Origin: Tubulanus polymorphus
Taxonomy: Eukaryota; Animalia; Nemertea
Assembly: GCF_964204645.1 (NCBI RefSeq)
Contig: NC_134026.1
Span: 18,014,150-18,078,149, forward strand
Reading direction: 5' to 3'
Length of the DNA: 64,000 bases
A program made the position numbers and the translations under genes. The notes below the pieces were generated by a model. That model saw only the letters and a list, made by a program, of their open reading frames with translations, was not told the DNA's origin and made no database searches. Shown in pieces: positions 36,811 through 64,000 of the stretch. Each line of letters begins with the position of its first letter. Positions within the stretch are counted from its first letter, which is position 1.

Positions 36811-36971
36811 TCTAATCAAGTATGGGTGGACTGAATGGAGGGTTTGATAAAATATTATTGAGCAAGGTAGCATGTTTGATATACACTCACAATTGGTCAC
36901 AGAGTTACGTATGAGAATAAAAACATATAAGGACTACCCTACTACCCATAATTTGTTATCAATACGCTAAG

Positions 36972-37904: not shown

Positions 37905-38028
37905 GGACAAAGAGGACTGGTGAGAAAAAAATGTATCTACGATTTTTGTAACCCACAATGTTCATATTTTATATTTCTAAATAATTGTACATTTTGCCAT
38001 TTATATCCTACCCACTACAAAGAACAAC

Positions 38029-41920: not shown

Positions 41921-42019
41921 ATGTAAATATGCTGCTTTAGAATTTGATTTGTGGATCTATGGTAATGGTATCAATAAATAAAAATAAAGTGACTTTTAGT
42001 AAAAAAATATTGCACTTAC

Positions 42020-43432: not shown

Positions 43433-43533
43433 GGTGACTCTGTGGAAAATCTACCGAAGCTAAAGTAAAAAGTCAAGACATAATATATATTTTTCAAAAG
43501 CTTACATTTTTATTTTAGATCAAATTATTCTAG

Positions 43534-44382: not shown

Positions 44383-44472
44383 TGTACCCTTACAACATGT
44401 CCGATTTTATTTTTTTCGTAACTTTATACATTTCCTATCTTGTTCCATTTTGGCTCATTTTTCTCACCTTCT

Positions 44473-47400
44473 CTATTCTGCGCTGTTGGTTGGTTTAGTT
44501 AGGTATAACATTTGTAACTTTGTATCCATCTCTGCATTCTCCTTAATATTTTTGTTCAACTCTTTAATAGCATAGTTGCCAATCACACCGTTCTTAGCGT
44601 AGTCCAAATTATGATCGAGACGGGTATTGCCGTGTTGACCAACAGTTCTTTTAATTGTTTCCTTTTCCATCGTTAATAATTTAACTACAACGTAGATGAG
44701 CAACGGTGTGAATATGCAGTTCAAAATAACACTGGTTAAATTGATAACAGCACCATATTTCTCACCGAAGGTTTCCACGTGTAGTGCTACAGTATGTTTT
44801 ACATAGTCCATGTAGCTCATATGTCGTATGTTGAATGGTAATTTCTTTTGATCGTTGACAGTATCGCCCGGACCACCACCAATGTACACAGACTGACCAA
44901 AGTCTCCTCCGCCACTACCCACAGACCGTCTGTTTCTACGAGGTGCAACTGTTGTTGTTTTGCCGTTTTTACCTTTCTTTCCTTCGTTAGCAGTTCTGAA
45001 TCTATTGTATATCGGTGCGTGTAGATTTCCATCTAAAAGAAGCTCTTCGGCTGTGTTAGGCAAAGAGGAGGGTAGGTTGGTCGTAGAATATGGCCAAAAG
45101 TGATGAGGAACAGAATCGCGTTCCTGACGTTTCAATCGCTGCTCGTTAAGCCTATTGATGGCAGTGGCATCCAACGTGGATAAAAATTTACTCGGTGATT
45201 TCGGACTCATGGCTTCTGCAAAAGACACCTCAATAAGGTGATGGCGGATTCCTTCATCCAGACCAGAGTGATAGCCGGTGTTGTGGCTGGTTTCATCGGG
45301 TTTCGGAACATAGTCCATATCTGTGCTAAGGAAATTGTTGTTGATTCCACCTCCTCCACCACCGATCATGTTGGTAATATGAGTACCGCCGGTATTTGTG
45401 GTTTTATCCAAAGGGTCGCGCTTTCCTTTATGGAAAACATTGTACTCGGACGACATGGGAGTTGTCTTGCGTTCCTCTACATGATGAAGCTTGCCTGTAA
45501 CGCCCGAAAACGTTACCTTTTGATTACCTACGTTAAAGTGTAATCTACCAGGCATTCTATTACAAGGCGTGATTTCGTTCAATTCGGGACTTAGCCGTTT
45601 TCCGTTATCGAGAACTTGCATATAGCTAACTCCGAGTTCTTTGGACATAACTTTGACAATTGGACTCACATAACACAAGTCAGACAAATGTGGTACTTCA
45701 TCTCTTAGTCGTGATTGTAGATTTCTATAAATCGTTGGAATCGGCATGCCTGGGTAGTCTAATTTCAACGAGGGTACGACTCTCATATCTTTCCACAATA
45801 CGGTCTGGCATCTATGAATGGCCCAGTCGTCGCCAGACTTTGTTATATGAATGTGTTGATCTGGGTATAGAGTTTCGGCCATGGCTGTTGGATCGAGGCC
45901 ATAAATTCGTTCGCTTAAACGTTCAAGTGCCAGTTTCGTTCTTGACATTTGATTGTGCATTTGACCCATACGGTTGTTAACCAAATTGAAGTTGTCTGCT
46001 TCATCTCCGCCAATGTTTAACGGTAACCAAGTAGCAGATTGGATGTTGGTGAATTTTGTGGTTGTTGGTGCCGTTGGGTTAGCGGGTCTAGCCGTATTGG
46101 CTACATTAGCTCCAGTCGTACCGATTCTCGTCAACGTAACAACACCCTTAATACATTTCCAATCGTGGTCATAGGCATCCGTGTATTTTGTGCTCACACC
46201 CGAACACACAGCTTCATCCAAATCGGTAGGAGTACCGGTCACCTCTGGGTTAAAGCCGTGTCGATGAACATACCGCCTGGAGTTGGTTAACGATTCTTCA
46301 TTAGTGTATTCTTGTGCTGGTTTGATGCTGTACTTTAATTTGTTTCGATTCCACCGTTCTACATACCTTTCGGGTTTACCTATTTGACTTTTGTCTACAA
46401 ATTGCAATATGACCGATCCATCTACCATATACGTTTGGTAAACGCCGCTCGGTTGATCCATACACTTGGTCGCGCCGTCTTCACCTAAAGGGTTGATATC
46501 CAGCCTATTGAAGTGTGCTGCATCTATCTTCTGTGTATCGTAAACTTTGAAAACGTGTGGTGAATTCAACAGATCTTTGGTATTTTCCACAAAAGTGGTA
46601 ATTTGATTCACGGTGTTGCTTGCAGAAGACCCAAGTGCCATGTCGGTGTGCTGAAGACCGCTAACGATTTTAGCCGTGACAGGAATTTCCATTAATGGTG
46701 TAAACGGACACAAGGGCACAGAAGTGTCCAAGTCGTGAATGTTGTTGTCAATTACAGACCACATTAAAGTAGCGGCTGGGTGATCGGAATTTCTAACGTG
46801 AGTGTAGCCGAAGTTACCATCTTTTGTAATTCCATATTCTGGCTCTGAAGATAGAGGGTCGATTTGGGCAGAGTTTATTCGTTTTCCAATCTTGGACATT
46901 TGTGCCGATCCGAAAGGTGTCGATACTCGTTTACCACCTTTAGTCGCTTGATAAGGGAACGAATACGTTACGGGTACATTTGTGTCTAAGATACAATTTC
47001 TAACATACAAGTGACCGGCACCTCTGTTTAGACAGACCGACATCAGTTGCGATCGAACGTAGTCGTTGAAAATCCCCTTTACGGTATTGTCGGTTACGTT
47101 TGATCGAAATTGATTGGCCGACACTTGAGCCATGGGTAGTGTTTCGGTAATGTTAATGGCCGGTAGCGAACTTGTATCGAAGATTTCACATTTCTTCTGT
47201 TCATGCCATTTTTGACATTCATCGGCCGTAACACCGTGCTCTAAAGTGGGTAGCCAGGTTAGCGTGGGTTCCCATGCATTTTCATTGCATCTGAAGGAAA
47301 CGTGATGAAACATGGCACGACACGCAAAAATATTGTCCATTTTATAGACACGGTGATTCGGTGTAAACACCTTTAGGGTACCTGTGGTTATGCTGGTGGA

Positions 47401-48150
47401 AGTGGTAGCCGGGGTTGCTTTCGGTCCACGTAGTTGTTCTGCTGCATCGGCCAGAGTGTCCACGTGAATATATCGATGTTTTTGCTTCTCGCATACCTTT
47501 GCGTTTCTAGCGTCGCTTACTTCCCTGAGTTTGTTTGCATTTTTGAATAAAATGGTGAACAGCGGAAACGGTCTTGTTCTAGCCTTATCATCGGCGTCGT
47601 AGTGAGCGGTGTGTTTTACCTTGGCGCATATAGACATTTTTTTATACGCCGCTCTTTCTCGCCAAGTTGGTAACTTTGGGAAAATTGTGTTTTGTACATC
47701 TTCATGTGTAACCGAGATGGTGTAGACAAAATGACTTGCTCCACCCACAGATGGCTCGCGACCATCAACACCTGCTGTACCGCCAATGCTTAAATCGGTG
47801 AAATCTGTAGCCTTGTCTGGGTACGCATCACAAAGTTTTAGACCCGCCGATTCATCGTAGAACGATTGAGCTGCAATAAAATTCGAATCCTCTACTTTGA
47901 TTTGCAGCGGTGCTTGAATTATTTCTGGATCAACCACATATTCGTCCCCTGTTATCAATCTAAATAAGTTGTCGCCAACTTTTGCATTCGTGCTATTTGC
48001 AGCAGCTAATTTTAATTCCAAAACATCGGTAAGTTTTCTGAGATTATACTGGGTAGTGTAGGTACCGTCGCCGGCCAATGAATATCTACAACAACAACAA
48101 CATAGTAGCATAGCTATGATTAAAAGTTTGTTTATTTGAAGTCGCGGCAT
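44473..48150 (-). CDS. gB: Glycoprotein B-like class III fusion protein
   Basis: Signal peptide and C-terminal TM. GLDPTAMAETLY...KSGDDWAIHRCQTV...CYVSPIV...EITPC...HFNVG parallels gB KLNPNAIAS...LGDVMAVSTCVPV...CYSRPLV...IEPC...YFTFG. Confidence 0.8.
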   Translation of the reverse strand: MPRLQINKLLIIAMLLCCCCCRYSLAGDGTYTTQYNLRKLTDVLELKLAAANSTNAKVGDNLFRLITGDEYVVDPEIIQAPLQIKVEDSNFIAAQSFYDESAGLKLCDAYPDKATDFTDLSIGGTAGVDGREPSVGGASHFVYTISVTHEDVQNTIFPKLPTWRERAAYKKMSICAKVKHTAHYDADDKARTRPFPLFTILFKNANKLREVSDARNAKVCEKQKHRYIHVDTLADAAEQLRGPKATPATTSTSITTGTLKVFTPNHRVYKMDNIFACRAMFHHVSFRCNENAWEPTLTWLPTLEHGVTADECQKWHEQKKCEIFDTSSLPAINITETLPMAQVSANQFRSNVTDNTVKGIFNDYVRSQLMSVCLNRGAGHLYVRNCILDTNVPVTYSFPYQATKGGKRVSTPFGSAQMSKIGKRINSAQIDPLSSEPEYGITKDGNFGYTHVRNSDHPAATLMWSVIDNNIHDLDTSVPLCPFTPLMEIPVTAKIVSGLQHTDMALGSSASNTVNQITTFVENTKDLLNSPHVFKVYDTQKIDAAHFNRLDINPLGEDGATKCMDQPSGVYQTYMVDGSVILQFVDKSQIGKPERYVERWNRNKLKYSIKPAQEYTNEESLTNSRRYVHRHGFNPEVTGTPTDLDEAVCSGVSTKYTDAYDHDWKCIKGVVTLTRIGTTGANVANTARPANPTAPTTTKFTNIQSATWLPLNIGGDEADNFNLVNNRMGQMHNQMSRTKLALERLSERIYGLDPTAMAETLYPDQHIHITKSGDDWAIHRCQTVLWKDMRVVPSLKLDYPGMPIPTIYRNLQSRLRDEVPHLSDLCYVSPIVKVMSKELGVSYMQVLDNGKRLSPELNEITPCNRMPGRLHFNVGNQKVTFSGVTGKLHHVEERKTTPMSSEYNVFHKGKRDPLDKTTNTGGTHITNMIGGGGGGINNNFLSTDMDYVPKPDETSHNTGYHSGLDEGIRHHLIEVSFAEAMSPKSPSKFLSTLDATAINRLNEQRLKRQERDSVPHHFWPYSTTNLPSSLPNTAEELLLDGNLHAPIYNRFRTANEGKKGKNGKTTTVAPRRNRRSVGSGGGDFGQSVYIGGGPGDTVNDQKKLPFNIRHMSYMDYVKHTVALHVETFGEKYGAVINLTSVILNCIFTPLLIYVVVKLLTMEKETIKRTVGQHGNTRLDHNLDYAKNGVIGNYAIKELNKNIKENAEMDTKLQMLYLTKPTNSAE

Positions 48151-48284
48151 CGTGGTTGTGAGTTATAAGTCACTAATATTTCGCTTGAAAATAATTCACG
48201 ACTCGGTGTAGGTAATTTCTAATAGTAGATATAAGCAGTTATCAAATATAAAAAAATACACTGGTAAAGTCATTCGCGTGTCAA

Positions 48285-49901
48285 TCACTCACTCTTTTTA
48301 TCTCCACCGGTCTTGTAGAATGCAATTCTAACCATTTTCGAAATTCGCTTGGGTAGGTCGGAATTACGAACGTTCCTCAATCGGTCCATGTATATGTGTT
48401 GGATGTAATTAGAAGTGCTTGTATTGACGTTGATTAGCAGACAGATAAAAGTGACCAGGATGTTGAGTCCGGCAGCTAGTGTAATGTACACACTGTTAAT
48501 GTGTCTCGGCTCAAATTGCACCACTACTCCGACAGAGATTGCCAAGACAATAAAGTAGATTACTCTCAGTGACTGGCTGCCAAACCACATTTTATCGCCC
48601 AGCGTAAACAGAATGATGAAAATGCTAAGTCCCAACAAATAGCCAACAACTACACCATCTCCAAAGATCACCGTGTTCATCAACAGCGACGAGTTTACAA
48701 ACACCAAATTGGCGATCAGTACACACACAGCGTTGGTCGTTTGCAAAAACATCAGCATACCGAAGCCATAGAAAGCTGGTTCACCACAAGCAAACAAAAC
48801 CTTGGCATAAGTCGGTGAGAGGCGGGTAAAATTTTCTCCAAAGGTGTTCACCATTTCGTATTGTCGCGATGCATCTACTTCGGCATCTGACTTTGGTTGT
48901 TTACGCTTTCTAACTCCGGTGGTGTCACTTTCAGTTGTCTTTGTTCTAAATTCACGTTCGTATTGTATTTCCACGTCGTCGTCATAATCATCATCTGATA
49001 CTTTCTTATAACCCTTGCTCTTGTTCATTTGCTTTTCAAACCAAGAGATTATCCGGTCACCGGCACTTGGCTTTTCTTCTTCTTCCTTGTCATTTTTTTC
49101 TTGCTCGATAGGAAACAATCTAGCTTCCTTGAACAATCTGATGATCTGTCGTCTGTGTAAGGGTAAACAGAGGATGACATATATCAGCGTCCCCGATCCA
49201 TAGAGGATAGCCAGAGCAGTGTAAGTAGCAATAAAGATTGCATTCTCGCCGGAGGCCACAAATTCTTGTCTGGTCGCTTTGTGATGCATTTGCAAATCGT
49301 CGAGAAATTCTACGTGGTCGCCAGGGTTTACGGCACCGGTAAGTCCAGCTTGCCCCTCCATAATGAAAGTGTTTGGTGCAACCATCGATCCAATCTCGTA
49401 AGCAGTGTTCGATGCATGATACGGGTACTTGTAGAAAACCTTTTCAACGATGGGTAGGAGATGTGAAATGATGTAGTTGGTCTTGACGATTGAACATGTC
49501 ATGTAAATTAACAGACACAATATGTCGCAGATCACTGACAATGGCCTGGCTTCCATCATTGATTGAATATACCAGCGGACACCGTTGTTGGTGTTGTATT
49601 GTTTCTGGTCGATATTGAATCGTTTCACCGTATCCATTAACTCGTCTTTCTTGTACCGATTACCGTATATTAAATAGAACAGCTTACCAACGAAAAGCAC
49701 CATCATTAGTATCAACACGTAGAGTTCAATTATATTGAATATTTTGTTATCAATCACCGAGCCGAGTGGGATGTAGGAATCATTTCCTATTTTCGGTTGA
49801 AAAGTTTTATAGTTGTTTAAGTAAAAGTTGATGTCCCTGCCGCTAATTTCATCGTAAGTCCTATGATTGACCCCCAGACCACCTTGATAATTGGGTATCA
49901 T
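48285..49901 (-). CDS. Multi-pass membrane protein (about 7-8 TM; gM-like topology possible)
   Basis: Several long hydrophobic segments separated by a charged loop. Homology not established. Confidence 0.75.
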   Translation of the reverse strand: MIPNYQGGLGVNHRTYDEISGRDINFYLNNYKTFQPKIGNDSYIPLGSVIDNKIFNIIELYVLILMMVLFVGKLFYLIYGNRYKKDELMDTVKRFNIDQKQYNTNNGVRWYIQSMMEARPLSVICDILCLLIYMTCSIVKTNYIISHLLPIVEKVFYKYPYHASNTAYEIGSMVAPNTFIMEGQAGLTGAVNPGDHVEFLDDLQMHHKATRQEFVASGENAIFIATYTALAILYGSGTLIYVILCLPLHRRQIIRLFKEARLFPIEQEKNDKEEEEKPSAGDRIISWFEKQMNKSKGYKKVSDDDYDDDVEIQYEREFRTKTTESDTTGVRKRKQPKSDAEVDASRQYEMVNTFGENFTRLSPTYAKVLFACGEPAFYGFGMLMFLQTTNAVCVLIANLVFVNSSLLMNTVIFGDGVVVGYLLGLSIFIILFTLGDKMWFGSQSLRVIYFIVLAISVGVVVQFEPRHINSVYITLAAGLNILVTFICLLINVNTSTSNYIQHIYMDRLRNVRNSDLPKRISKMVRIAFYKTGGDKKSE

Positions 49902-49920
49902 CTTGACGGCTTTCTGTGGG

Positions 49921-52900
49921 TTAACGAATAATTAAGTTTCTCTGTCTGAGTACGTCAGCAAATAAATTATTTAACTCGTGTGCTGTATCTCGTTCGAAAT
50001 ACGAACAAGTGTTCAAGTTGAACGAATGTCTCTGAGCGTCAGGTGTGTCTCGTAATACTATAAAAGACTCGTCTCTACACACGGTTGGTGTGTGAATGAT
50101 ACTATCTTCACTCTTTGCCGAAGTTAAGCTTTTTCCAATTGTACTCCCGTAGCCCAAATGTCCAGCAGCTTTACTTCTGCCTGTATTATTCATTGCCTGT
50201 CCCAACACAACCAAGTCAATTTTTTTGCTAGTTGATCCAGTTTTTTTCGCAGTTGTAGGGACGGTAGCACCAGTTGATGTTGTCAACATTCCTCGTGAAC
50301 TACATCTAATCGGTGTATCTAGTATCTGTTGTACAAAACAAGCAAGCTTGCGCTGCATAGTTTCTGATCCTCCTGAAGAGTCTGAAAGTACCGATGCTAA
50401 ACAGTCCATAAAAGACACTCTATCTACTTTGTCGGGGTATTGTTCTTGGCCGAGTGCAGTTGACGGTGTGGATATTTTTGCAATTAGTGATAAAATTGCC
50501 GTGGCTGTGTCATCGTCCATCCATTGACATTCAATTAGTAACATTGTTGTCAATTGAATATACTTGGTAATTTTATCAGCGATGTCGAGTCCACCCACAG
50601 CATCCAACATAATCAATTCCTTTACAATCGTAGACAATTTCGATGAAGCGTCTAGCCTGCTAAAGTCAAAAATTGAATTAGGGTAGAGTTGAGTATTTCC
50701 CGATTCAGAATCTACGCCGAACGTGTAAAAACATATCACGGCTCTGGTATTAACTAGGGTTAGAAAACTCATAGCAAACAAGTAGTCCCAAAATTGCCAT
50801 GCTGATAAATGTTCGTTCTTTCTTGTATCGTTTTCCACTACAATTAAATCCAACACAGCCCTCGATCCACCTTTCTTTTCATCTTGAATGTTTTCAAACA
50901 CCATGTGCAAATTTCTGTTCAATAATCCGCACTTGTGCAAGGCAAACATGTGTTCTTTGTTGCTTATACCAATCTTTTGCACCAGATCGATATTAACGTA
51001 TGAGTTGGCCACCACCATAAGATTGATGAGTTGATTTTCAGTGATTAGGAATTGGGTCGTTGCCTGTGGCGCGTCCAAGTCTGTTTGCTGCTGCTGTCTG
51101 GTGGCTATACTGGCTCGATCCACGCCTAGCGATTTAGTTACTTGATCTCTGGATCGTCGCTGCAATAAATACCCCAAGCAGTTGACTATCAAATTAATTC
51201 CTCTCGAATTCATTGGTACAATATCCAAGGGATTAGTCGTGTTGCTACTAGCTCTTAGCACAATTGGAATTTCATTGGGTATATACGTGTCAGTGTTGTC
51301 GTTTAGACAAATGTTTTTCATAATAACTTCTACCAAAAGCCACACGTTATCAATAGCCTGTGATGCAAACTCTTTCATCTTGTCATTTTCCATTGTCGCT
51401 TTTGCAATTGCATCTATTATTGCCTTTACTCTTTTAAATTCGTTCTGATGGGTAGTGGTGGCAAGGGTAGTAAGCATGTCCGGTCCGGTATACTCGGGTA
51501 TGTATTTATTCAGTGTGCAGTCGCTGAGTTTAAGAAAGTACGACAATTCGGGGTTTCTGTCTTGGGCTATCTGAGATTCTACAATTCCTGTGCTAGACGA
51601 TTCACAATAACACAACAGCTCCTCTAGCCACGCAGAGTATAAATCTTTTGCGAACTTTGTATATTTACCCTCTTCTTCAACTTGTATGTTTGTCCAAGTG
51701 GTAGCTTTACTGTCCCAGAATAATTTGCACAACTTCTGAAACAAATTCGTCTCATCTTTCGAAAAAGACAAATTTTTATTCACACATCCTATCAAAGTCC
51801 ACTTTCCGCTGTTTTTCTTGTCTCGTAGTACGTAGCCCTCTTCTTTGTAACGACAGACGTTGCTTTCCTTGTGCTCATTCGAGAATACTGTTGTCCACAA
51901 TATGTCTACCAAAGTTATACCATGACCCGATGAAGGACAGCTCCTGTTGTCATTTTGACTTGCCATGGCGTTTGCCATATACCTAAACAACTCGATTCTC
52001 CTTACCAATTGATTTCTGCTACCACCCGTTTTTCTGAGTTCTGCGTAAGTTTCACACATAATGTCAATGATGTCTTGTATACTTTGAAAGTATTCGACGT
52101 TTTTATTGCTAGAAGCTACTACCTTGATCTGTTTTCGTATGATCTCCGCGTTGTACTGACCACTGGTACCAAATACGTCTGTCAACCCAATACCCCACGA
52201 AAACACTTTGTGAAATTGCATTTTTGTATAGCGTTTGTCTATGTTGTTTAGCCAATGCATGATATCCTTTATCACAGTGGCCGTTTTGACATTATTTAAA
52301 AATGCCTCATGTAACGAGTGTGGTATTTGTCCAGATCTAGCGTCGCCGCGCCAAAGTTCGGTGTTGACCACTTCGTATTTGTAACTCTTTTCACCACCAT
52401 TTTCGCCAACATCGACACTTTCATCCTTTTTTATTAACCAAAACACTGGTCGGATATCGTATGAAAAATCCAACGCTCTCGGTAATAGTCTACATTCGGC
52501 TGTGAGTTCTGTGCTATGTTGCACTACAGGAAACAGCCAATTTGCTTCATCTGAACAGTCGTACAACACTCTGGTAGCAATTGTGGTTGCATAACTTAGC
52601 AATTCTGACATATCAATCGTTGCTGTATTTGCGGACACCGTTACTAAATCGGCTGACAGGACTTTTTGCAAAAACCACATCATTTCATCGACAGTCCAAC
52701 CTGCAGTGTTGGGTTTCATATCAACCGCGGTGGCCAAACTATCGTAAATCGACTGTATGTATGTGCCGTGATTTGCCGCTATTAATTTTGAACGAGTGTT
52801 GTAGTTTTCAACCTTTGTCATTTGCGCTTGCCATGTTTTCATTAGTGCAGCCAAGGTTCTTTCCCACGTGAACTTGTGTCTGATCATTGAATCGAACAGG

Positions 52901-54570
52901 AGTACCAGAAACGCGTCTCTATCGATTCGTTTTGTTTCTGTGTTAAAAATGGCACTCATGAGATTTGTGTTTGTAAGCAAGGGCATTTCACCAGTATTGG
53001 GTAGCATCGACTTTGGTAAAATGTAGTGATAAAGTGCAATGGCTTGGTCTTGGTTTATCATGGCAGCTTCACCTTGTAGTTGAAAGTGATGAGCTTGTAT
53101 CAACAAATTTACAATCGATTGATACTTGTTACCTCCTATGCTATCTCTTAGCGTTAATCCAATCCAGTATATTTGTTTATGGGTAAGGGTAGTGGTGCTT
53201 GTTGCACTTTCTTTTTGAATTTTATCATCTACGATTACGAACAAATCCTTGGGTATGTAGCCCAAACTAGAATGAGCACTATCTACCGTTATGTAGTCAC
53301 CTAGTTCTACTACGTCGCTATTTTCTATGGGATTTACGACTGTTCCATTTGTCCGTTCCAGAGCAAATAGCGATTGGGTAGGTACGTCTCCGAGTATGTC
53401 ACGTACACATTGTAAATAAACGTGTTCATACACGTCTCTTGCGCGAACAAAAACTTTTCCCCCAGCACCTATCTTCGAGTATATATCTAACAATGCCGTA
53501 CACAGAGGAACAACAAAGTTTCGAGAATCCATTACAGTAGCTAGAAACTCCAAACTTTTGAGTAGATTTCCTCTGAATTTATCTGGTATCGTGTCGGCTC
53601 CTTGACCCATGTTAGTGTTTCGTATTTTCTTGTTGATCTTGTCTAGCAAATATTGTAGACCCATCATATAGATACCTTGGTTTGCATATTCTTGTTGAAC
53701 AGACGGCGCTGCGGTTGATTCTTTTATGTTCCAGTATGGACTTTTTACAAGTCTCAAATTGAAATCTACTTTAGTGTCTAGATAAACTTTCAAGTCGTAT
53801 TTTAATTTTCCTAGCGGTAGCAAACTGAATGTGTAGTCCATAGCTGCATCCATGTTGTACAAGAAATTTGACAAGTCCGTTGCTGATTTTGTCTCTTGAA
53901 TTGCTCTGTTCATCATCAACTCCATGGTTCCGACTCTACCCATCTCTGACTCTGTTTCCATGAGCGGACCATTCAGAGAGACCAGAGCCGGACATTCTTT
54001 ACCTTCTTGGGTGTTCATGGCTTGCAAAGTCAAGCACATGACTAATTTGTCTTTTTGAATGGATTTTACGATACAGTCCTTGAGTCTATTGTCGGGTATT
54101 ATGTTTGCGTATTGATAAGTCAAAAGTGCGTCTCTATACGCCTGATCCGCTACGGGTATTGTGTCTGTCAACGCTTCTACCAAAGTTTGTGTAACTTTGA
54201 ATATAGAAGACTTGAAAAATAACATACAGGTTGTATTATCTATGACGTTGGCATTTTGAAAAATCTTCACCCACGATTCTGGTACAGATTGGACCTCCAT
54301 CAACCGACTCAACATTGTTAATGTGAGTGTGATACTCTGAGAATGTAGCCTTGCCGCATTTATATCGACGACATTAGGATTGGGTAGAGTAACGTGTACA
54401 AATCGACACAAACTACCATCTGTTGAAGTTGCCGCTGGATTCACTTGTAAGAAGTCATTTTCTGAATACTTAAACCACAATGAAGTCTCCACATCATCTA
54501 CTGACTCAAAGACGAAATCTTTAAAGAACTCTGTTATCAAATGATCCATTTTGTATTTATTTACATTCAC
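49921..54570 (-). CDS. Large hypothetical viral protein (1549 aa)
   Basis: Intact intronless ORF overlapping the upstream ORF by 14 nt. No catalytic motif recognised; size fits a capsid or tegument protein. Confidence 0.75.
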   Translation of the reverse strand: MNVNKYKMDHLITEFFKDFVFESVDDVETSLWFKYSENDFLQVNPAATSTDGSLCRFVHVTLPNPNVVDINAARLHSQSITLTLTMLSRLMEVQSVPESWVKIFQNANVIDNTTCMLFFKSSIFKVTQTLVEALTDTIPVADQAYRDALLTYQYANIIPDNRLKDCIVKSIQKDKLVMCLTLQAMNTQEGKECPALVSLNGPLMETESEMGRVGTMELMMNRAIQETKSATDLSNFLYNMDAAMDYTFSLLPLGKLKYDLKVYLDTKVDFNLRLVKSPYWNIKESTAAPSVQQEYANQGIYMMGLQYLLDKINKKIRNTNMGQGADTIPDKFRGNLLKSLEFLATVMDSRNFVVPLCTALLDIYSKIGAGGKVFVRARDVYEHVYLQCVRDILGDVPTQSLFALERTNGTVVNPIENSDVVELGDYITVDSAHSSLGYIPKDLFVIVDDKIQKESATSTTTLTHKQIYWIGLTLRDSIGGNKYQSIVNLLIQAHHFQLQGEAAMINQDQAIALYHYILPKSMLPNTGEMPLLTNTNLMSAIFNTETKRIDRDAFLVLLFDSMIRHKFTWERTLAALMKTWQAQMTKVENYNTRSKLIAANHGTYIQSIYDSLATAVDMKPNTAGWTVDEMMWFLQKVLSADLVTVSANTATIDMSELLSYATTIATRVLYDCSDEANWLFPVVQHSTELTAECRLLPRALDFSYDIRPVFWLIKKDESVDVGENGGEKSYKYEVVNTELWRGDARSGQIPHSLHEAFLNNVKTATVIKDIMHWLNNIDKRYTKMQFHKVFSWGIGLTDVFGTSGQYNAEIIRKQIKVVASSNKNVEYFQSIQDIIDIMCETYAELRKTGGSRNQLVRRIELFRYMANAMASQNDNRSCPSSGHGITLVDILWTTVFSNEHKESNVCRYKEEGYVLRDKKNSGKWTLIGCVNKNLSFSKDETNLFQKLCKLFWDSKATTWTNIQVEEEGKYTKFAKDLYSAWLEELLCYCESSSTGIVESQIAQDRNPELSYFLKLSDCTLNKYIPEYTGPDMLTTLATTTHQNEFKRVKAIIDAIAKATMENDKMKEFASQAIDNVWLLVEVIMKNICLNDNTDTYIPNEIPIVLRASSNTTNPLDIVPMNSRGINLIVNCLGYLLQRRSRDQVTKSLGVDRASIATRQQQQTDLDAPQATTQFLITENQLINLMVVANSYVNIDLVQKIGISNKEHMFALHKCGLLNRNLHMVFENIQDEKKGGSRAVLDLIVVENDTRKNEHLSAWQFWDYLFAMSFLTLVNTRAVICFYTFGVDSESGNTQLYPNSIFDFSRLDASSKLSTIVKELIMLDAVGGLDIADKITKYIQLTTMLLIECQWMDDDTATAILSLIAKISTPSTALGQEQYPDKVDRVSFMDCLASVLSDSSGGSETMQRKLACFVQQILDTPIRCSSRGMLTTSTGATVPTTAKKTGSTSKKIDLVVLGQAMNNTGRSKAAGHLGYGSTIGKSLTSAKSEDSIIHTPTVCRDESFIVLRDTPDAQRHSFNLNTCSYFERDTAHELNNLFADVLRQRNLIIR

Positions 54571-55987
54571 TGGGGACGATACAAGTCCCGTTGTATAACA
54601 AAATTATATCTAGAGCTACCAACAACCACATTACAAAACAGACTATACTAAATACGATAAATAGTCTCATGAAATATTCACAAAATAGTGAACAACAACC
54701 ACCTCGCTTTTGGGTACAAAACGTGAAAATTGTTTCTTTTTGTGAGTTCTTCGTTCCCTCCATTATGTCCATTGTTTCCAGTAGGCGAACAGTGTTTTCC
54801 TGATCCAAGTAGCCACGTACCTTTTTCAAAACCTTTTCCCTGCGTTTTGTGTACTTGAGATAATTAAAATTGAATGCTTTTATAATTTCTACACAAAACA
54901 CAAAAGATGTGCACAGTGTCATCAACATGGCAGTAAAAATTATTCGGCATTCTCTTAAAGGGGTAAGGGTATTAGCTGCTATTTTATCCGCTGCAGTATT
55001 GTCACCAGAAGGGTTTGATATAAATCGTACCAACTGTAATGTTCCGTCTAGTCCAACATTATCTACATGTTCGACGCCTGTTATCATGGACAAGAGAAAC
55101 GAAAATGTTACCATAATGTGTGTTAAACTCCCTAACATCAACACAAACATACATGGGTACAGCATTAACAGGACCAAACGCTGTTTTCTTTTATAAATGT
55201 TGCCACTGGTTTCTGTATTCATTTGATTTTGTCTAATTGATGTATTGTACATTTCCATGTTGTTAGTTCTACTGCCACCACTTCGTTTTCTTAGTGTATT
55301 TTGTTGTGGGTACCCGTCATCTCCTTCTTCCATTGTCGATAACAAACCAGTATCCTCGTTATATTCACCCTCCCATCCAGTTATGTTATTTTTATACCTT
55401 TTTCTAGAAGCATAATAGCTCTTCAGTCGGTAGACCCGTTCTCGAACAGCTATTACACATGTAACAGCGTATAGAACAATCAAGGCTATAAAAGTTGTGG
55501 AAATCCACACAAGTGGAGAGTGATGTACATCTTCCAACTTGTAGGGTAATGCTTTTCTCTCGTGTAGTTTTATTTTAGCGTTAATACTGTCGCCGTCGCT
55601 TGGATTCATCACTTTTTCCCATTGTGATGCAAGTGCAAGCATTTTGCAATCTCTACAACAACGGACAGAGCCACTGCATACCGTGTAAAATTCCTTTGTA
55701 CAAATTTTAAAGAGGGTAACGTTAGAATCCGGAGTGTGGGGTATAAATTTGCATCCCGATAAAGGTGTGCAGAGTCTTCCTCTGCGCTTCATCAGTCCAT
55801 GTTGTCTAAATTGTTCTCTCGAGGCTACATTGGCGTCCAAGTCGGAATAGAATACAGTGTCCCAAAAGAAGAACACAAATCCAAAAAATGTAACAAACGC
55901 CAATATGTTCAATAAGAGTAACAATTTATCCAAAACGATGTTAGATGTTGCCATATTGGAAATAGTGAAATATTCTAACTCTAACAA
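54557..55987 (-). CDS. Multi-pass membrane protein (about 5 TM) with Cys-rich first loop
   Basis: Hydrophobic segments plus LCTPLSGC...CSGSVRCCRDC loop. Confidence 0.75.
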   Translation of the reverse strand: MLELEYFTISNMATSNIVLDKLLLLLNILAFVTFFGFVFFFWDTVFYSDLDANVASREQFRQHGLMKRRGRLCTPLSGCKFIPHTPDSNVTLFKICTKEFYTVCSGSVRCCRDCKMLALASQWEKVMNPSDGDSINAKIKLHERKALPYKLEDVHHSPLVWISTTFIALIVLYAVTCVIAVRERVYRLKSYYASRKRYKNNITGWEGEYNEDTGLLSTMEEGDDGYPQQNTLRKRSGGSRTNNMEMYNTSIRQNQMNTETSGNIYKRKQRLVLLMLYPCMFVLMLGSLTHIMVTFSFLLSMITGVEHVDNVGLDGTLQLVRFISNPSGDNTAADKIAANTLTPLRECRIIFTAMLMTLCTSFVFCVEIIKAFNFNYLKYTKRREKVLKKVRGYLDQENTVRLLETMDIMEGTKNSQKETIFTFCTQKRGGCCSLFCEYFMRLFIVFSIVCFVMWLLVALDIILLYNGTCIVPSECK

Positions 55988-56241
55988 TAGCCCCTAATAC
56001 AAAATTAAAAGCAAAACCGAACTGCAGCCAAAGTGGTGACCCTATTGGATATGAAGCATTGACCGTATGTATGTTCCCTTCCCAGGTTTCCATTTCAGTG
56101 CATGGGACCTACGCTATTCCATTTCAGTGCATGGGACCTACGCTAGATGGCGTGGGGGTATGCAGCCCTAGCCCCCTATTTTCCACTCAGCCAGCAGCAG
56201 CAATAGTCTAACATCGCTTTGAGTCAAAAGTAATATCAATC

Positions 56242-56331
56242 GCCAGGATGGCCGAGCGGTTAAGGCGTTGGAATTAAGATCCAATGGACAACACGATTAT
56301 ATCCGCGTTGGTTCGATCCCCACTCCTGGTA
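56242..56331 (+). tRNA. trnL-TAA: tRNA-Leu(TAA)-like gene, non-canonical
   Basis: GCCAGGATGGCCGAGCGGTTAAGGCG TTGGA ATTAAGA TCCAA...GGTTCGATCCCCACTCCTGGTA. A and B boxes intact, T-run downstream. A at position 32, enlarged variable arm, one T-stem mismatch. Confidence 0.85.
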
Positions 56332-56357: not shown

Positions 56358-57085
56358 TGTACAATTCTTCATCATTAAAACCAGGAAGTACAAGATTTGT
56401 TATCTCAACATTAGAACCAGGAAGTAACGATTTCCCATATGTTTTAGGAGTGATATACTAGCCTCTAACCATAAGGGTTTGCACTTTCCTAATGCATTAG
56501 TATAGGGATTAGTCATGAAATCCGCCATTTTACCTGATGGTAGCGGAACGATTTCAGGCAAAACGTTCCGCTACCATCAGGTCCACTATTTCACTGTTTA
56601 AAGTGGATTTAGAGGTTAGTTGAACATTACGTTCTTGGTGTAGGACGATATTTGCGTAAAATATAACCATCAATGTACTGTTTGAAGGTTGTAATTATGT
56701 GTTTTATTTGGAAAAAAATGAACAATATTTTAGTCAGGGAAGAAAACATTGTCCACTGCCCTGACTTGTAAAAGTTTTATCCAAGACAGAACGCATTTTG
56801 GTCAGAAAACCGAACCATTGTCTACTATCCGGACTTGTACAATTCTTCATCATTAAAACCAGGAAGTACAAGATTTGTTATCTCAACATTAGAACCAGGA
56901 AGTAACGATTTCCCATATGTTTTAGGAGTGATATACTAGCCTCTAACCATAAGGGTTTGCACTTTCCTAATGCATTAGTATAGGGATTAGTCATGAAATC
57001 CGCCATTTTACCTGATGGTAGCGGAACGATTTCAGGCAAAACGTTCCGCTACCATCAGGTCCACTATTTCACTGTTTAAAGTGGA
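56358..57085. promoter_or_regulatory. Two 250-bp direct repeats, each with ETS-like and YY1-like motifs and a perfect 19-bp hairpin
   Basis: 56358-56607 equals 56836-57085. Each has CCAGGAAGTA twice, CCGCCATTTT, and a hairpin (56532-56582; 57010-57060). TATAAATA at ~57148. Confidence 0.75.
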
Positions 57086-57224: not shown

Positions 57225-60197
57225 GTGAAAATTGTATTTAGTACAACAGCACCTATTCCCGATGTTACACACCCTCTGCATGGTCTCATGATGAAAATTT
57301 TTGATTCGAAAAACGAGTCTTGTAAACTCAATGAAGCTGTTGAAAAAAACATTCAAAAAATCATTGCTATTGATGTTACATATTCCAATGGCAATGGAAA
57401 AAAGTCTACCAGTAAAAGATTTAGTTCTTCCATATTCGAAAGGCCTGAATCCAATTCACAAATGAGAGACAAAATACTGGTACAAGCTCTCATGAGTTCA
57501 GATGAACACGTTTATGAAGTAATAGATGACACGAAGCCAAAGCGTCTTTATTTAGACATCGAGTGGACAACAGATCGAAGCGTCAATGACGACTCGCGCT
57601 CACGAGAACAAAATGCTCGAGATTTACTATCAAACATGGTGAATGAATTTGAAAAGTACTTAATCAAATTCAAAACCGACGACACCATGTCCGCAGCAGA
57701 ATTTACCCAGCGTCTCGTACTAACCAGTAGTCGTGTGAGGAAAACGAAATACAAGCATTCGTTTCATGTTATATACCCAAATATTATATTTAACGAAATA
57801 ACCGATATGAAACGATGTGTTCTAGAATTCAAAAATTCTAACACAAAATATGGTTTTATGATAGACAAGGACGTCTACAACAAAAACCAACAATTCCGTG
57901 CTGTTAACCAAAGTAAAATCTGCAGCTCTACAGTTCTATCCATTTTGCCCGAGTTATCTAGTCCTGAAGCACAACCTAGTCGGTCATTAATCCAACCATA
58001 CTCCGAATTGAAGTCAACGACAAACAGCATGACTTTACCAAAACATTCTACTACAAAGAGAAAAAGAAAATCTTCGTCAGCATCATTAGCAGCAAATGAA
58101 CCAAGCACGACTTGTATCAAACGCTCCAAAAAATGCCAACACTCAGCGGACGAAAATCAACACCCAAAAGACGCAGTTCCCGACAGGCCTTTAAAACTAC
58201 CCAATTCATCTGTCGTTGTCCGTACAGACAAAGATGTCATTGATTTGATTGATGGAAAAGATTTACGAGCAAGTGATTTCACCAAACACTATTTACCCAT
58301 CCTTACATCAATTGTCTGTAGGAATCTTACAGGTAACACCAACATTACACCAAACGACATCATGACATGGTGTAACTACACAGACGACAATCTATCAAAA
58401 GCCCAAAAAGACATAGATTATGTCACCAAAAACGCCGAGAAACAACTGGATGATGATTTCAAGTATCTAATACAACACATCAAAGACCTAAAAGACATCA
58501 CTGTATACGATTTGAGAACAAAACATATCCAGCCTAAGATAAAACATGTGAAATTTGAAGAAGTGAATTTATCGAAACGCATCCACACCAAAACACTGTG
58601 TCTACAAGTGACCACCGATGATGGAACCGAGGCCCAAAAACAATGCGTTGATAATATTGTCAAGTTCGTTCACGACTACAAAATAGAAAACACTTGTTTG
58701 TTAAACAACAATGTTTTACTATTATCAAACGAAAAGAAAAAGATGGATTTTAAAAACTTAGCGAAAACACTCACCAAGTACAACATATCGGTGTCAGGTC
58801 GAAATTTCGATACCCCCTTTCCAAAAAGTATACTCGAACAAAGTATCGACCTAAGCGCTAACATTGACAGTCAACTACTGTTAAATGTAGGCGAAATGTA
58901 CGAGATTGACCAAATAAAGTCGATTATAGAGTATACCGCGAAATGTGACAAACAAAAGCACAAAAACAAAGAATTGCTAACAAAAAGCATACATCAATTG
59001 GTCAACGAGGGCACAATCAAACTTACCGAAATATCCTATGTTCAAAGTGCCAGATCTCAATACAACAAACTAGTTTCTGAATCCGAGCAAAAACCTGATC
59101 TATAGGAAACTTACGTCATGAAATTCCGACGAGGTAAACAAGACGAAGACGGTATATACACACCCCTAGAACCATGGAAAGAATCAATAGAAATACCCAT
59201 AATACCATACCGAATTGGTGTAAAACGACGCAGCTTGTACATTTGGTCGTATGGGCCCAATTGGGGAAAAACCTTTAATGCCGATACATTTTGTAAACTA
59301 TACAACGCGCAGTGCGTCAACGATACCAATAATTGGACCAATATTCGCCGTAACGTTCAATTCCTGTTCTTTGACGAGTTTAGTGAAAAGCGAAAATTGG
59401 AGTTCAGCAGTCTCGCTGCTCTAGCTGGTGGAAACCCCGAACACTTTTCTGGAAATTGTAAAAGTTATGGCGACTCGTTTCAAACAAACAATGAAAAACT
59501 CCAAGTAATAATTTTCTCAAACGTTTCGCCGTTTAAGCTGTACGGTGATTGGGACAAGAAACTTCAGAAGCGATTGATTAGTACCGACAACGCCAACATC
59601 CTGAAAGAAAGATTTGCCATGTACTGTTTGGACGGCGATGTTTGGCTAGATGAAATTCAAAATACTAAACGAGACAAACTTACTCTTTCACAGTTGTATT
59701 TCTGTACAATTACAGACTTACGAGGAATGTTACTAAAACTACTACCAGGTGTGGTTTGTAATACTCTTAGAGACAAATTATTTATGATGACACAATATCT
59801 TGTAAACGTATTAAGTTGTTGGGATTTTTCATACGCCTGTGCAGATCAAATACAGTCTGTGATCAAACGTTTTACAAAGTATCTCTTGCATCCTGAAATC
59901 GCAAGAGTAATGTCAGCAATTATCGATTCCGATTATTTCAACTCCGCACGACGCAGCATCAAAGTTCCTGGCAAAGATGTTTCTTCAACTTTTATACCTC
60001 TTGTTGAAGTTTCCGAAGTGTTGGAATATGCAAGGTGTAGGATTGAAATATGTAATGAAATATTACAAGAAGGATACGATCCTCTTATGGACACCGACAA
60101 TAATTCAGACATTGAAAGCGACGTTGAGTGTGAGGACGATTTGTTCCCAAGTTGTTACCAAAGTTGCAAATGTAGCCTTATTAACGTTCAAATGTAA
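57225..60197 (+). CDS. AEP (PrimPol-like) primase fused to SF3 helicase, interrupted by one in-frame TAG
   Basis: AEP motifs YEVI..RLYLDIE, SFHVI, IDKDVYNKNQQFR. SF3 motifs GPNWGKT (A), LFFDEF (B), VIIFSN (C). CTA TAG GAA ACT TAC GTC ATG links the two track ORFs in frame. Confidence 0.85.
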
Positions 60198-60329
60198 CAT
60201 ATCCGGTTAGAGTTTGTTTCGTGTTATTGATATGAGAAGTTAGATAGAAAATATTGTTAGAAAATATTCTAACCATCAATAGTAATAAGACAAAAAAGTT
60301 AGTTTTGGCGCCCACATGCATGTTAAAAG

Positions 60330-60739
60330 ATGAAAATCAACATAGTGTTATTTGGTTGTTTTTTATTGTCCAATATTGCTAATGCTGAGTTCAATTATGA
60401 TTCGAATGACGATGATGCCGTTGGTGATTACATCTGCTCACTTGATGATGAAGTCTATATAAATGGAAAATGTTACGATAAAACTACAGTCTATGTTGGT
60501 GGTTTTTTGGTCTCTTAGCTGTATTAGCAGTAATTAGTGATTGTTTTTGTGGATTTTGTTGCTGTTGCTGTGCGCCATGTAAGAATAATAGAAATCTAGG
60601 AATTATCCATACTCCTACAACTGTTATAACCATGCCAAACACAGTGCCTGGTGGTTCTGTAGCTCCTCCACCCTATCCTGCGAATGGTGGTGGATTTGAA
60701 AACATGATGTTTGGGGTGAAGCAACCTTCTGATGTGTGA
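60330..60739 (+). CDS. Shisa/WBP1-like small membrane protein with PPxY motif, 1-nt frameshift in a T run
   Basis: Signal peptide and short Cys ectodomain. After a shift at GGTTTTTTGG (60501-60510) it reads GLLAVLAVISDCFCGFCCCCCAPC...VAPPPYP...DV-stop. Confidence 0.7.
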
Positions 60740-61261
60740 AATGTAAAGAAGCACAACCCTACTCAGACCATACTCCATTCGTCAATACAACTCCGCCACA
60801 ACAAAACAACTTTACCCATGTGTACATCATCATCCGCCGTTTACCCAGACTCAATCGTCTTATTGCAGGAGGTGCCAGAAGGAAGTATAAAACATTCCAA
60901 GTCATTTGGTGCTTCAAGAATTTGCGTGTATGTTTCCATCGACGCCGCTACCAGACTCTATAAGTAATACGATGACGGGCACATGCGTGTGAGCGATTGT
61001 ATGTGGGATCTTGCGAGCTAAAGCGCTGTTGTGAAACGCTAGTGTACCGGCCTTGTATAAAGAACAATAAAAACACATGTCCCCGATGCTCTACGAAAGT
61101 AGATGAGATAAAGTTACAAGAGGAGAAATAAGGTTACGAATGGAGAAATAGCGGGTTACGAGAGGAGAAATAAGCCAAGTTCGAACTTTTTCCAAGAGGT
61201 TAGAGAACACATACTTATCTCACTCAATCACTCAGTCCAAAAAGAGTTCGTTCCGTAATCG

Positions 61262-62230
61262 AACAACCAACCAACCAACCACTCTACCCTGTATAGGGGA
61301 AGCGGATGATGGGCGACACGGCGGTATTGTGTCCCGCGGTTGTCGGACAAGAACCGAGACTCGACATACGATGCAGCTGCAAGCACACGCAGGCACATCT
61401 CTGAGCTGAACACAAGTCGAGTGTGTGTATCGATCGTAAGCCACCAATTTATAATTAATGTCTAAAATGCACAAGTCCAACCAACCAACCAACCAACCAA
61501 CCAACCAACCAACCAACCAACCAACCAACCCCAAACCCTGTATAGGGAAGCGGGCGATGGGCGACACGGCGGTAATGTGTCCCGCGGCTGTCGAACAAGA
61601 ACCGAGACGAAGCATGCTGTGGCCGCTGCAAGCACATGCAGTAGCAAGAGATTTGTGCCAAGACATGGAGCTAAGGCAATGATGCAGCAGCAGCACAGTG
61701 AGCCGTATGAGTCTGACATGGCATAAAGTCAAGAATAAACATCATATATTATGGTGAATGGAAAATGAAAAATTTTCGAACTTGGCCAAATTTTCAAAAT
61801 TTTCAACATTTTCCAAAAAGTCCCCCAGAAAATCAAAAACAGTGACACTATACTATAGCTGGGGTACCGGGGTTCTGGGGTATCTGGGGTACTTGGGGTA
61901 CCAGAAATTAGTACTAATTTAAGTTCCAAAAATTCTGTTAAAATGGAACAGTCACCTGTTTTTTCTGGTACCCCAAGTACCCCAGATACCCCAGAACCCC
62001 GGTACCCCAGCTATAGTATAGTGTCACTGTTTTTGATTTTCTGGGGGACTTTTTTGAAATTTCCAACTTCACAATTTTTCACTTTGTCCAACACTTCACC
62101 GATTCTCCGACACATTTCACCATCATCCTGACACGGCTTGCAGCTGCTATCGTGTATCTCGTCTCGGTTCTTGTCCGACAGCCGCAGGACACAATACCGC
62201 CGTGTCGCTATCTCCGCGCTTCCCTATAAC
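61262..62230. repeat. Nested palindromic element, copy 2, with an extra motif copy and (AACC)n
   Basis: Same inner palindrome at ~61815-62055. The 55-bp motif occurs at ~61312, ~61561 and inverted at ~62160-62208. (AACC)n at 61479-61530. Confidence 0.9.
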
Positions 62231-62379
62231 ATGGTTAAGGGTGGTCTAGATACACAGGCACACGCAGTGGTTCTCTATGTTCGGCGGAATGACTTGGCTT
62301 ATTTCTCCTCTCGTAATACAGTGGAAATTCAATCGGATATATAACTGCTACTACATGTTATGAACGCTTATAAATATAA

Positions 62380-63116
62380 TACTGTTTCGTTCACTCGCAC
62401 CTTACGTATGCGACCCTAATTTGGGGAAATGGATCCAATGTTTATATTGACCCTCTATTTCGTTTACAAAAGAAAGCCATTCGTATTATAACCCATTCTC
62501 ATTGGTTAGCTCATACATCCCCTATTTTTAGAAAACTAGAAATCCTAAAATTACGTGACATTTATAAATCTCAATTAAGTACTTTTGTATTCTCACAGAT
62601 CAATAACAATCTACCTTCTATCTTTGATAATTTTTATAACCTTAGAAACTTCAAACGACCGTCTCGGCACCTTTTAAGTCTAACCGTTGATTTCGCTCGA
62701 ACAAATTTCAGAATTAAATCTCCAAAAATCCAGGGTGCTAGAATTTGGAATAGCTTATCCAATAAACAAAAATCTTCAAAATCATCTGTTCACTTCAAAA
62801 GCTCTCTAGTTAAAAATTTGATTTCGACCTATTAAATTCTTTATTTCGTGGACGCCATTATTGTACATATATTATATCTTTTTTTTCCATCAATTTTGTG
62901 TGTGTCTTGTAACGAATGTAAGTGAGGGTGAATGGCGTGTGCATGCGAGTGTGTTTGTTACTGAGGGGTAAGGACTCGCATAAGTCTACTTTGACTTTTC
63001 CTTACTCCTCGCATAATATATTGTTACTTTTAATAACTTACTATTATGTATATATATATTTCTTGTTACAATTTATTTGCAAAATAAATCTAATCTAATC
63101 TAATCTAATCTAATCT
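62380..63116 (+). mobile_element. 5'-truncated CR1/L2-group (Crack/Daphne-like) LINE inside the viral block
   Basis: HLTYATLIWG..LFRLQKKAIRIITHSHWLAHTSPIFRKLEILKL...GARIWNSL..FKSSL, then 3' UTR, AATAAA and (TCTAA)n tail. Confidence 0.85.
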
Positions 63117-63267: not shown

Positions 63268-64000
63268 TTAGAGTAGTTCATCGTCTTCGTCGTAAAAATC
63301 ACTATCCTCGTCTTCGCTGTCACTATAACTGTTGTGGTCTTTTTTGCGGCGTTTTTGGAGTTTTGTTTTTTCATCAGCATTGTCAGCGTCGTCTTCATTG
63401 CTTTCGGATGAGCTTTTGTCGGCGTCTTCAGAATTTGATGATTTATTCTTACGACTATGCCGTTTTTTCAAAGATTTAAATATCAACGTATTTAAACCAC
63501 AAAACTGATAAACGGCTAAAAACATCAAACTCTGAATACAAAATGCAATAAGCGACAAAAACCCGCCGCTAGTAAGACAAGTGATCACCTCCCCTATACC
63601 GCCTGGCAGTGCGTTTAAAATGTCGTGGAAACCTTTCAGTGGCCCTTTGTTAGCGAATGATTTGTCTAAATCCCTAAAGTCCAGAGATCTATTGAGTCCC
63701 TTTTCCATTTCCTTGGCAAACACTTTTACCCTTGCATTGGTTAAGGCGGCTGCCTTTTTCATGTCTATTCCATATTTCTTGATACTGGCTACCACATCTT
63801 GCAACGGCATTGACCATTTGAGTTTGTGAATTTGAATAGGGGTAAGATCGTCGTGAAAAGACGGCCATAGAGCGTTGTTTCCTTGAAGAGTGTTGCCTCC
63901 GATTTCGCTTGGAAGATATTCATAGTCTTTGTTGTCCAAAAAGTTCTGAATTAAAAACGAGTTGATGGGTAAACGAAACGTTATTTCCTTTAACGTATCT
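63268..64000 (-). CDS. C-terminus of a membrane glycoprotein, 5' end outside the window
   Basis: Frame is open to the window edge. Gly-rich amphipathic segment, TM, then basic and acidic tail. Confidence 0.7.
   Translation of the reverse strand, partial: DTLKEITFRLPINSFLIQNFLDNKDYEYLPSEIGGNTLQGNNALWPSFHDDLTPIQIHKLKWSMPLQDVVASIKKYGIDMKKAAALTNARVKVFAKEMEKGLNRSLDFRDLDKSFANKGPLKGFHDILNALPGGIGEVITCLTSGGFLSLIAFCIQSLMFLAVYQFCGLNTLIFKSLKKRHSRKNKSSNSEDADKSSSESNEDDADNADEKTKLQKRRKKDHNSYSDSEDEDSDFYDEDDELL

Follow-up and report, generated by a model that had tools for sequence, protein, structure and literature searches.

In the genome of the ribbon worm Tubulanus polymorphus, a stretch of 64,000 nucleotides (NC_134026.1, positions 18,014,150 to 18,078,149; hereafter the window, in whose positions all coordinates are given) carries, next to a group of genes resembling those of herpesviruses, what looks like an archaeo-eukaryotic primase (AEP) joined to a superfamily 3 (SF3) helicase. 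Is this fusion real, what kind of helicase does it contain, and does it belong to the herpes-like virus or to a second element lying beside it? We found a real and unusual chimaera, which is broken in the window and belongs to a unit present in several copies next to a herpes-like provirus. The two halves of the gene have separate relatives, its other copies form one open frame, the stop codon of the window copy falls inside the Rep-like half, and the unit around the gene is sequenced more deeply than the viral core.

A primase and a Rep-like helicase in one reading frame

The original prediction, made from the letters of the window, was of a single gene from 57225. The first ATG is at 57288, and the window has two open reading frames (ORFs), ORF-A (57288-59105, 605 aa), which terminates at an in-frame TAG (Table 1), and ORF-B (59118-60197, 359 aa), which resumes in the same frame 12 nt later. 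Five public sequencing runs (X1 to X5, from at most three samples and two studies, X1 possibly being the source sample) were mapped to the region, the words of which were next to absent from runs X6 to X10. The TAG is absent from the contigs of X1, X2, X3 and X4 and from 75 of 75 raw reads of X5, and all five runs, in their majority form, leave the 2.9-kb frame open, the indels listed inside it being in-frame only. The stop column of the family alignment holds a residue in all 44 aligned relatives, and the best match (P0002) aligned as one stretch across it (residues 452-914). Since none of the five runs has the stop and stand-alone homologues align across it, the predicted fusion is real and the window copy is broken; in the other copies the gene is one frame of 969 codons. 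As far as tested in the five runs, the TAG is private to the window, whose copy would yield a primase without a helicase. The X1 contig over 57056-61183 has five differences from the window, and the one over 44400-56109 has none. These differences fit a collapsed multi-copy majority compared with one deviant copy, assembly error being the alternative; rare variants are lost from contigs, so that a genuine minority copy would look here just like an error of assembly. An ATG 12 nt past the TAG would suit a different reading, in which ORF-A and ORF-B are two genes, or one gene with a programmed stop that is read through, but no run carries the stop, the TAG stands directly after a conserved family motif and within the Rep unit, and the + strand between the two ORFs has no AATAAA. 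This reading is largely refuted, and we find it barely credible.

A homologue search with X at the stop returned 192 proteins at E <= 0.001. Among the best 150 of these 192 matches, 145 cover residues ~427-914 only and five cover residues ~55-412 only. Profile searches of 169 proteins found an SF3 domain in 160 and an AEP in seven, and no protein among them had both. An earlier impression of rarity from word-indexed searches (no match for ORF-A, one, P0001, for ORF-B, and none for a two-row alignment) was overturned by an unindexed search. The end of ORF-A and the start of P0001 have weak pairwise similarity. One candidate locus (L001) was dropped as a chance 8-residue match inside a tyrosine-recombinase-like ORF.

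Residues ~55-410 comprise the AEP primase and a helical domain, and their closest relatives are separate proteins. Of the motifs of the AEP superfamily (NCLDV-herpesvirus clade), motif I (hhhDhD/E) is present as YLDIE (residues 88-92) and motif II (sxH) as SFHV (residues 158-161). The best Pfam match of this segment, AEP_C962R, lies below its cut-off (E 4.2e-4, 21 bits against 23), and ORF-A and ORF-B as wholes have no Pfam or PHROG match. The helical domain after the AEP is common to six of the seven AEP-bearing relatives. The relatives of the AEP half among the best 150 matches are P0058, P0127, P0145, P0128 and P0144, the first two of which carry DEAD/ResIII superfamily 2 (SF2) helicase domains.

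Judged by sequence, residues ~426-800 are a complete member of a large unnamed Rep-like family with a helicase of the type found in CRESS DNA viruses, whose single-stranded circular genomes encode a Rep. The back half is a full-length stand-alone member because its matches cover this half only, the middle domain is N-terminal (it starts at most 60 residues from the N-terminus in 70 of the 71 proteins that have middle domain and helicase), and the start methionine of the family aligns to window residue ~426; the family proteins are mostly 450-700 aa long. At 50% identity the family forms at least 145 clusters. No Pfam match was obtained for 17 of the 19 members scanned, and the other two are those in which DUF5906 appeared below cut-off (2 of 24 relatives scanned). 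The 16 clusters looked up are all without a name, and they come from contigs in Logan, ENA and JGI that range from 1.7 to 422 kb. In one cluster, 10 of the 15 listed members lie on short contigs (2.06-2.27 kb), and such recurrence on contigs of ~2.1 kb suggests a small discrete replicon. No relatives were found in viral contigs, metagenome contigs, plasmids or phages, and a genomic context for the family was therefore not obtained.

The helicase motifs named in the original prediction (LYIWSYGPNWGKT, FDEF and IFSN) are all present. In a 45-row alignment, the Walker A Lys is conserved in 45 rows, the Walker B Glu in 42, and the motif C Asn and the Arg in 43 each; K661 (Walker A), D696-E697 (Walker B), K725 (B'), N745 (motif C) and R775 (arginine finger), conserved over these rows within a span of ~130 residues, identify an SF3 helicase. 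The Walker A variant, S-x5-GK[ST], has an invariant Ser in the family alignment and was found in 107 of 151 proteins. The nearest Atlas clusters to the first 200 residues of ORF-B are CRESS Rep and RNA_helicase PF00910 (0.92-0.95, 202-214 of 256 features), as expected from the claim that the helicase is of the small-virus Rep type and not D5. The window protein has no D5 Pfam match, alignment-based searches gave no match to any named Rep, and PDB sequence searches returned nothing significant. Separate phylogenies had been proposed for the two domains; for the SF3 domain, a quick tree of 98 sequences (97 retained from P0001-P0100 plus the window; midpoint root, weak backbone) pairs the window with P0002 among the stand-alone members (SH-aLRT 94).

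The AlphaFold2 (AF2) model of the middle domain is a ferredoxin-like unit with a pLDDT of 54. The window protein has no HUH motif and so lacks the HUH pair that accompanies YxxK in an active CRESS Rep nuclease; its lone YxxK (residues 549-552) is not conserved in the family. The pattern H-hydrophobic-H/Q occurs within the first 130 residues of 3 of 44 relatives, with no conserved His column there, and in the family alignment neither His nor Tyr follows a conserved pattern across the middle domain. Fold comparison of this pLDDT 54 model matched the smacovirus Rep 8fr5 (Z 6.0, root-mean-square deviation 3.9, 81 residues aligned) and the circovirus Rep 7kii (Z 5.8, deviation 3.0, 81 aligned). Foldseek gave no match to the domain at E < 0.001; its top viral rows were non-structural proteins of chaphamaparvoviruses (E 0.013-0.054), on which we found no paper.

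A deeper-sequenced unit beside a herpes-like core

The herpes-like context that had been proposed for the gene was borne out by the terminase, whose C-terminal domain matches Pfam DNA_pack_C above cut-off (E 2.9e-8, 33.5 bits) and is thus of the herpes type. The intron between its two apparent exons is ~5.8 kb long and holds four ORFs on the opposite strand; a terminase in two exons with nested opposite-strand genes is the layout of herpesviruses. No informative Pfam, PHROG or PDB match was obtained for the other long ORFs of the window, and counterparts of the major capsid protein, DNA polymerase, UL5 and UL52 were not recognised in it, the window holding ~30 kb of the core only, without the polymerase/primase region.

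The gene is not simply part of this core, a separation that the original prediction had allowed for. At ~56090 the depth of X5 raw reads rises 2.8-fold, from 19.2 in the core (sd 4.5, 20 bins) to 53.5 in the unit (sd 8.7, 8 bins), and that of X1 contigs 4.9-fold, from 16.2 to 79.2, although contig depth is not copy number. The deeper unit continues to the right of the gene (a 13,130-nt X1 contig from 62256 has a depth of 65, and X5 depth at 63428-64000 is ~40). X2 contigs cover the unit and not the core; X3, from the same sample, covers both. A LINE-like fragment within the unit has a depth of 65 in X1 and ~16 in X5 and is absent from the contigs of X2 and X4, and from this unevenness we infer that the copies multiplied after the fragment had landed. 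As to linkage with the virus, the junction of core and unit seen in the window is present on a 19.5-kb X1 contig, without differing letters over 44400-56109, but other copies in X1 and X5 have other left flanks. The gene was not seen as a host transposon unlinked to the virus, the form that was to count against its viral connection, although copies with other left flanks exist. Neither an empty-site joint within 55000-64000 nor a tandem joint going back across the unit was listed, rows at repeats having been dropped. The hairpin-bearing direct repeats between the left edge and the gene (Table 1) are a candidate origin of replication.

Table 1. Features of the window, with the chimaeric gene and its domains first, then the unit and the core
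Feature	Position	Strand	Basis or remark
Chimaeric primase-helicase gene, 969 codons	57288..60197	+	window copy interrupted (stop in frame)
AEP primase catalytic domain, motifs I and II, motif III-like DKDVY	57480..58010	+	Pfam match below cut-off, motifs, five relatives
Helical domain after the AEP, likely PriCT-like	58227..58487	+	Atlas leads PriCT-2, NrS-1 HBD and PriCT-1, 0.78-0.79 (leads only)
Ferredoxin/RRM-like domain opening the Rep-like half, predicted origin-binding, no HUH pair	58575..58862	+	AF2, fold searches, family alignment
In-frame TAG	59103..59105	+	window only
SF3 helicase: Walker A variant S-x5-GKT, Walker B FDE, B' Lys, motif C Asn, conserved Arg	59220..59657	+	
C-terminal region, mostly helical	59658..60197	+	P0002 matches up to residue 914; full-length single-sequence fold pLDDT 31
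Left edge of the deeper unit	56080..56145	.	depth step; other flanks at 56080 (X1) and 56094 (X5); 29-nt tandem pair
tRNA-Leu(UAA) gene, eukaryote-type	56242..56331	+	ARAGORN; Rfam tRNA 48.4 bits; 150 nt inside the left edge
Pair of identical 250-nt direct repeats; a hairpin with a 19-bp stem in each (56532-56582, 57010-57060)	56358..57085	.	
Small Cys-rich membrane-protein-like gene over two frames	60327..60736	+	six-frame listing; no significant Pfam match
Cys/His-rich zinc-finger-like reading, broken frames	60733..61128	+	six-frame listing; no Pfam match
Nested palindromic repeat, 25-nt terminal inverted repeats	61156..62316	.	36223-36810 resembles its inner part (82-89%)
LINE-like 3' fragment with (AATCT)n tail, in some copies only	62380..63116	+	no Pfam match; presumed LINE from sequence appearance
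Membrane-protein ORF, C-terminal end, inside the deeper unit	63268..64000	-	exits the window
Herpes-like core segment, lower depth where tested (44400-56079)	26388..55954	.	split terminase, 1225-aa glycoprotein-like ORF, HMG-box ORF, others
Terminase, two apparent exons	43432-~42019 and ~36186-34137	-	splice signals near 42019 and 36186

Several further observations concern the neighbourhood. An HMG-box gene (43534-44382, - strand, Pfam E 1.1e-8) lies among the herpes-like ORFs, as do two intact ORFs without a family match (27654-33005, 1783 aa; 49921-54549, - strand, 1542 aa). The two membrane-glycoprotein-like ORFs (44473-48150, 1225 aa, and 63268-64000, 243 aa, both on the - strand) have no detected similarity to each other; that they might be fusion proteins is suggested by resemblance only. 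In X5, several variants and small deletions occur in 20-40% of the reads over 44400-55600, which suggests that this run carries more than one copy of the herpes-like core; some minority X5 reads in the core have frame-shifting deletions. Related long palindromes at 36223-36810 (in the terminase intron) and 61545-62224, each flanked by TA, are MITE-like or origin-like. The left arm of an X1 contig is an inverted match to 61561-61771 over 211 nt, of which the window matches only ~72 nt. The first 26 kb of the window resemble host DNA and contain remnants of transposons, among them a KDZ transposase fragment (22975-23658, E 2.5e-11) and pieces at 4674-6455 that we take to be DIRS-like. The herpes-like ORFs are preceded, ~1.3 kb to the left of the first one, by a degenerate TTAGGG-like repeat (24713-25053), which is possibly, but not necessarily, related to integration.

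Origin of the gene and rival readings

How did a Rep-like helicase come to be joined to a primase at the edge of a herpes-like provirus? We give an even chance to the explanation that the gene, in which an AEP primase is fused in frame with a complete Rep-like SF3 helicase lacking a nuclease, probably serves an endogenous herpes-like virus as an accessory replicase and lies in one of its long repeats. The core-unit junction of the X1 contig speaks for its belonging to the virus, as do the 13 kb over which the unit runs on, including the membrane-protein ORF, and the related palindrome found in both core segment and unit. A small Rep element would have recombined into a primase/helicase gene, replacing its SF2 helicase. 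The hairpin repeats just upstream would be the binding site of the ferredoxin-like domain, in the way that polyomavirus large T antigen (LT) and papillomavirus E1 bind origins through their inactive HUH domains, the SF3 ring would unwind the DNA, and the AEP with its helical domain would prime it. Replication would thus start nick-free, from one protein and with little help from the core primase, and the extra copies would be repeat segments that recombination or re-integration had left, comparable to the solo direct repeats known from integrated human herpesvirus 6 (HHV-6). As far as the sequence tells, the gene likely replicates its own stretch of DNA without a nicking step.

Several points weigh against this explanation, in addition to the caveat on contig depth given above. 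In X5, only about 1 of 7 reads at 56077 matches the window junction, whereas at 56094 there are 32-34 reads that lead into the unit from a different flank, so that adjacency of unit and core is not shown in that individual. The readable part of the unit is 8 kb, with 13 kb more to the right of the window. Of the edges that a herpesvirus direct terminal repeat of class A would have (two copies around a unique region, with packaging signals at the ends), one lies in the window, and neither a further copy of the repeat nor a viral terminus or solo scar turned up. Codon usage is no help in telling host from viral genes, since the KDZ ORF of the host scores like the viral ORFs. The AEP relatives are unnamed, and a herpes-like source of the AEP half is a candidate only. 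P0002 starts late, lacking the first strand of the family, and may itself be a truncated fusion. In the fold comparison, unrelated ferredoxin folds, namely HMA domains (Z 7.6), rank above the nuclease domains of CRESS Reps (Z 6.0 and 5.8), and the model gives at most a weak indication of HUH ancestry for the middle domain.

The same evidence can be read in other ways. The unit from ~56090 rightwards, at least 19 kb in X1, could be a separate satellite or another double-stranded (ds) DNA virus with its own primase-helicase replicase, lying beside the provirus here and alone elsewhere. The sharp depth step and differing left flanks, the poor support of the window junction in X5, the X2 contigs that cover the unit and not the core (X3 of the same sample covering both), the short contigs on which the Rep-like family is often found (10 of 15 listed members in the cluster mentioned) and the multiplication of copies after the arrival of the LINE-like fragment would all accord with such an element. 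However, no empty-site joint was listed in 55000-64000, the readable 8 kb hold no integrase, transposase or capsid gene, and a related palindrome is common to the unit and the terminase intron; we regard a separate element as a possibility worth keeping, but a doubtful one. It is clearly less probable, and in our view improbable, that the AEP-SF3 protein is the main primase-helicase of the herpes-like lineage, replacing UL52 and UL5. All its catalytic motifs are retained in the other copies, no second AEP or clear helicase motif set was found among 14 other ORFs scanned, and the AEPs of dsDNA viruses are described as usually paired with SF3 helicases (PMC4889955). Yet the window holds ~30 kb of core in which no polymerase or capsid gene was recognised either, so that such an absence means little, the gene lies within the deeper unit among accessory-looking genes, and all three families of herpesviruses are reported to have an SF1 helicase of the UL5 type (PMC4889955).

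The extra depth might finally be a passive segmental duplication, by the host, of a decaying viral remnant whose gene is now inert. The broken small neighbouring genes, the LINE fragment and the palindromic repeats inside the unit would suit this view, as would the frame-shifting deletions in minority X5 core reads; the frame of 2.9 kb that is open in the majority form of 5 of 5 runs speaks against it, although near-identical copies would also fit a recent duplication. We consider passive duplication very improbable. The fusion amounts to a straightforward case in which small Rep elements and large herpes-like viruses have exchanged a replication module. It also provides a testable route by which part of an endogenous herpes-like virus could gain copies. 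The nuclease-less Rep-like family is itself worth describing. To our knowledge, the other SF3 initiators that lack nicking motifs are mainly those of polyoma-, papilloma- and adomaviruses. Tentatively, and as a speculation we would hold rather doubtful, an undescribed and widespread family of small replicons, animal or aquatic, with nuclease-less Rep-type SF3 helicases could represent a third route to LT/E1-like initiators; one of its members, fused with a viral primase, would have produced a one-protein replisome with which a segment of an invertebrate herpes-like virus, or a satellite of it, replicates and spreads in the germline independently of the core machinery.

Comparison with known primase-helicases and Reps

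AEP-SF3 fusions are common, and their helicase is normally D5-like. The D5-like primase-helicases (poxvirus D5, African swine fever virus (ASFV) C962R, polinton-like viruses, ORF904 of pRN1) have the order found here, with AEP, helical domain and C-terminal SF3 helicase in one chain. The helicase of the window protein differs in that it belongs to a separate Rep-like family, is nearest to CRESS Reps by features and has the S-x5-GK[ST] Walker A. The protein may well work like a D5-type primase-helicase, itself being at most a candidate member of that type; for D5-like and pRN1 replicases, nick-free initiation from one protein has been described (PMC4889955, PMC5862659).

Primase-helicase fusions have also been reported from viruses closer to the present context. 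A fused primase/helicase family, ORF7/ORF49, is annotated in mollusc and amphioxus herpesviruses (PMC2994540), and a Prim-S2H fusion in the polinton-like (meld) virus Meld19810 (PMC11071296). Since fused primase/helicase genes are thus already annotated in the mollusc and amphioxus viruses, it is the SF3/Rep partner and not the fusion as such that is unusual here; the helicase of our protein is an SF3, and ORF7/ORF49 was compared by description only. The nearest relatives of the AEP half include AEP-SF2 fusions, as in the Prim-S2H type. A literature search that took in few subscription journals and no supplements found no description of an AEP fused to a nuclease-less Rep-type SF3 helicase. 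The terminase of the provirus, apparently spliced, is unlike those of the mollusc and amphioxus herpesviruses, which are given as intron-less in the description of these genomes (PMC2994540). Genomes of starfish and ribbon worms (10.1101/2025.04.19.649669), as well as scaffolds from lancelets and annelids (PMC5552708), are reported to contain divergent herpes-like insertions.

Among initiators, polyomavirus LT and papillomavirus E1 likewise have an SF3 helicase behind a domain without HUH motifs. They are not known to have a primase of their own, and they recruit that of the host. Pfam and PDB searches gave no sequence match of the window protein to either, and HUH ancestry is unproven here; in LT and E1 the domain is described as an inactivated HUH that binds the origin (PMC6668415). 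Adomaviruses are reported to carry Rep classes, a Prim gene category being listed among these viruses (PMC11071296). Replitrons and Helitrons are also eukaryotic multi-copy elements based on a Rep, and Replitron Reps have been weakly linked to CRESS Reps (PMC10288648). Unlike the gene studied here, which has no HUH nuclease of the kind found in such transposases, both need an active HUH nuclease and have no primase, and Replitrons also have no helicase.

A further parallel in a herpesvirus is U94 of HHV-6, a captured parvovirus rep in an integrating betaherpesvirus (PMC4063692), whose integrated form is also described as leaving solo direct repeats (PMC7444522). As in HHV-6, a small-virus Rep would here be an extra gene of an integrating herpesvirus. 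However, U94 is parvoviral and unfused, whereas the Rep of the ribbon worm element comes from an unnamed family and is fused to a primase.
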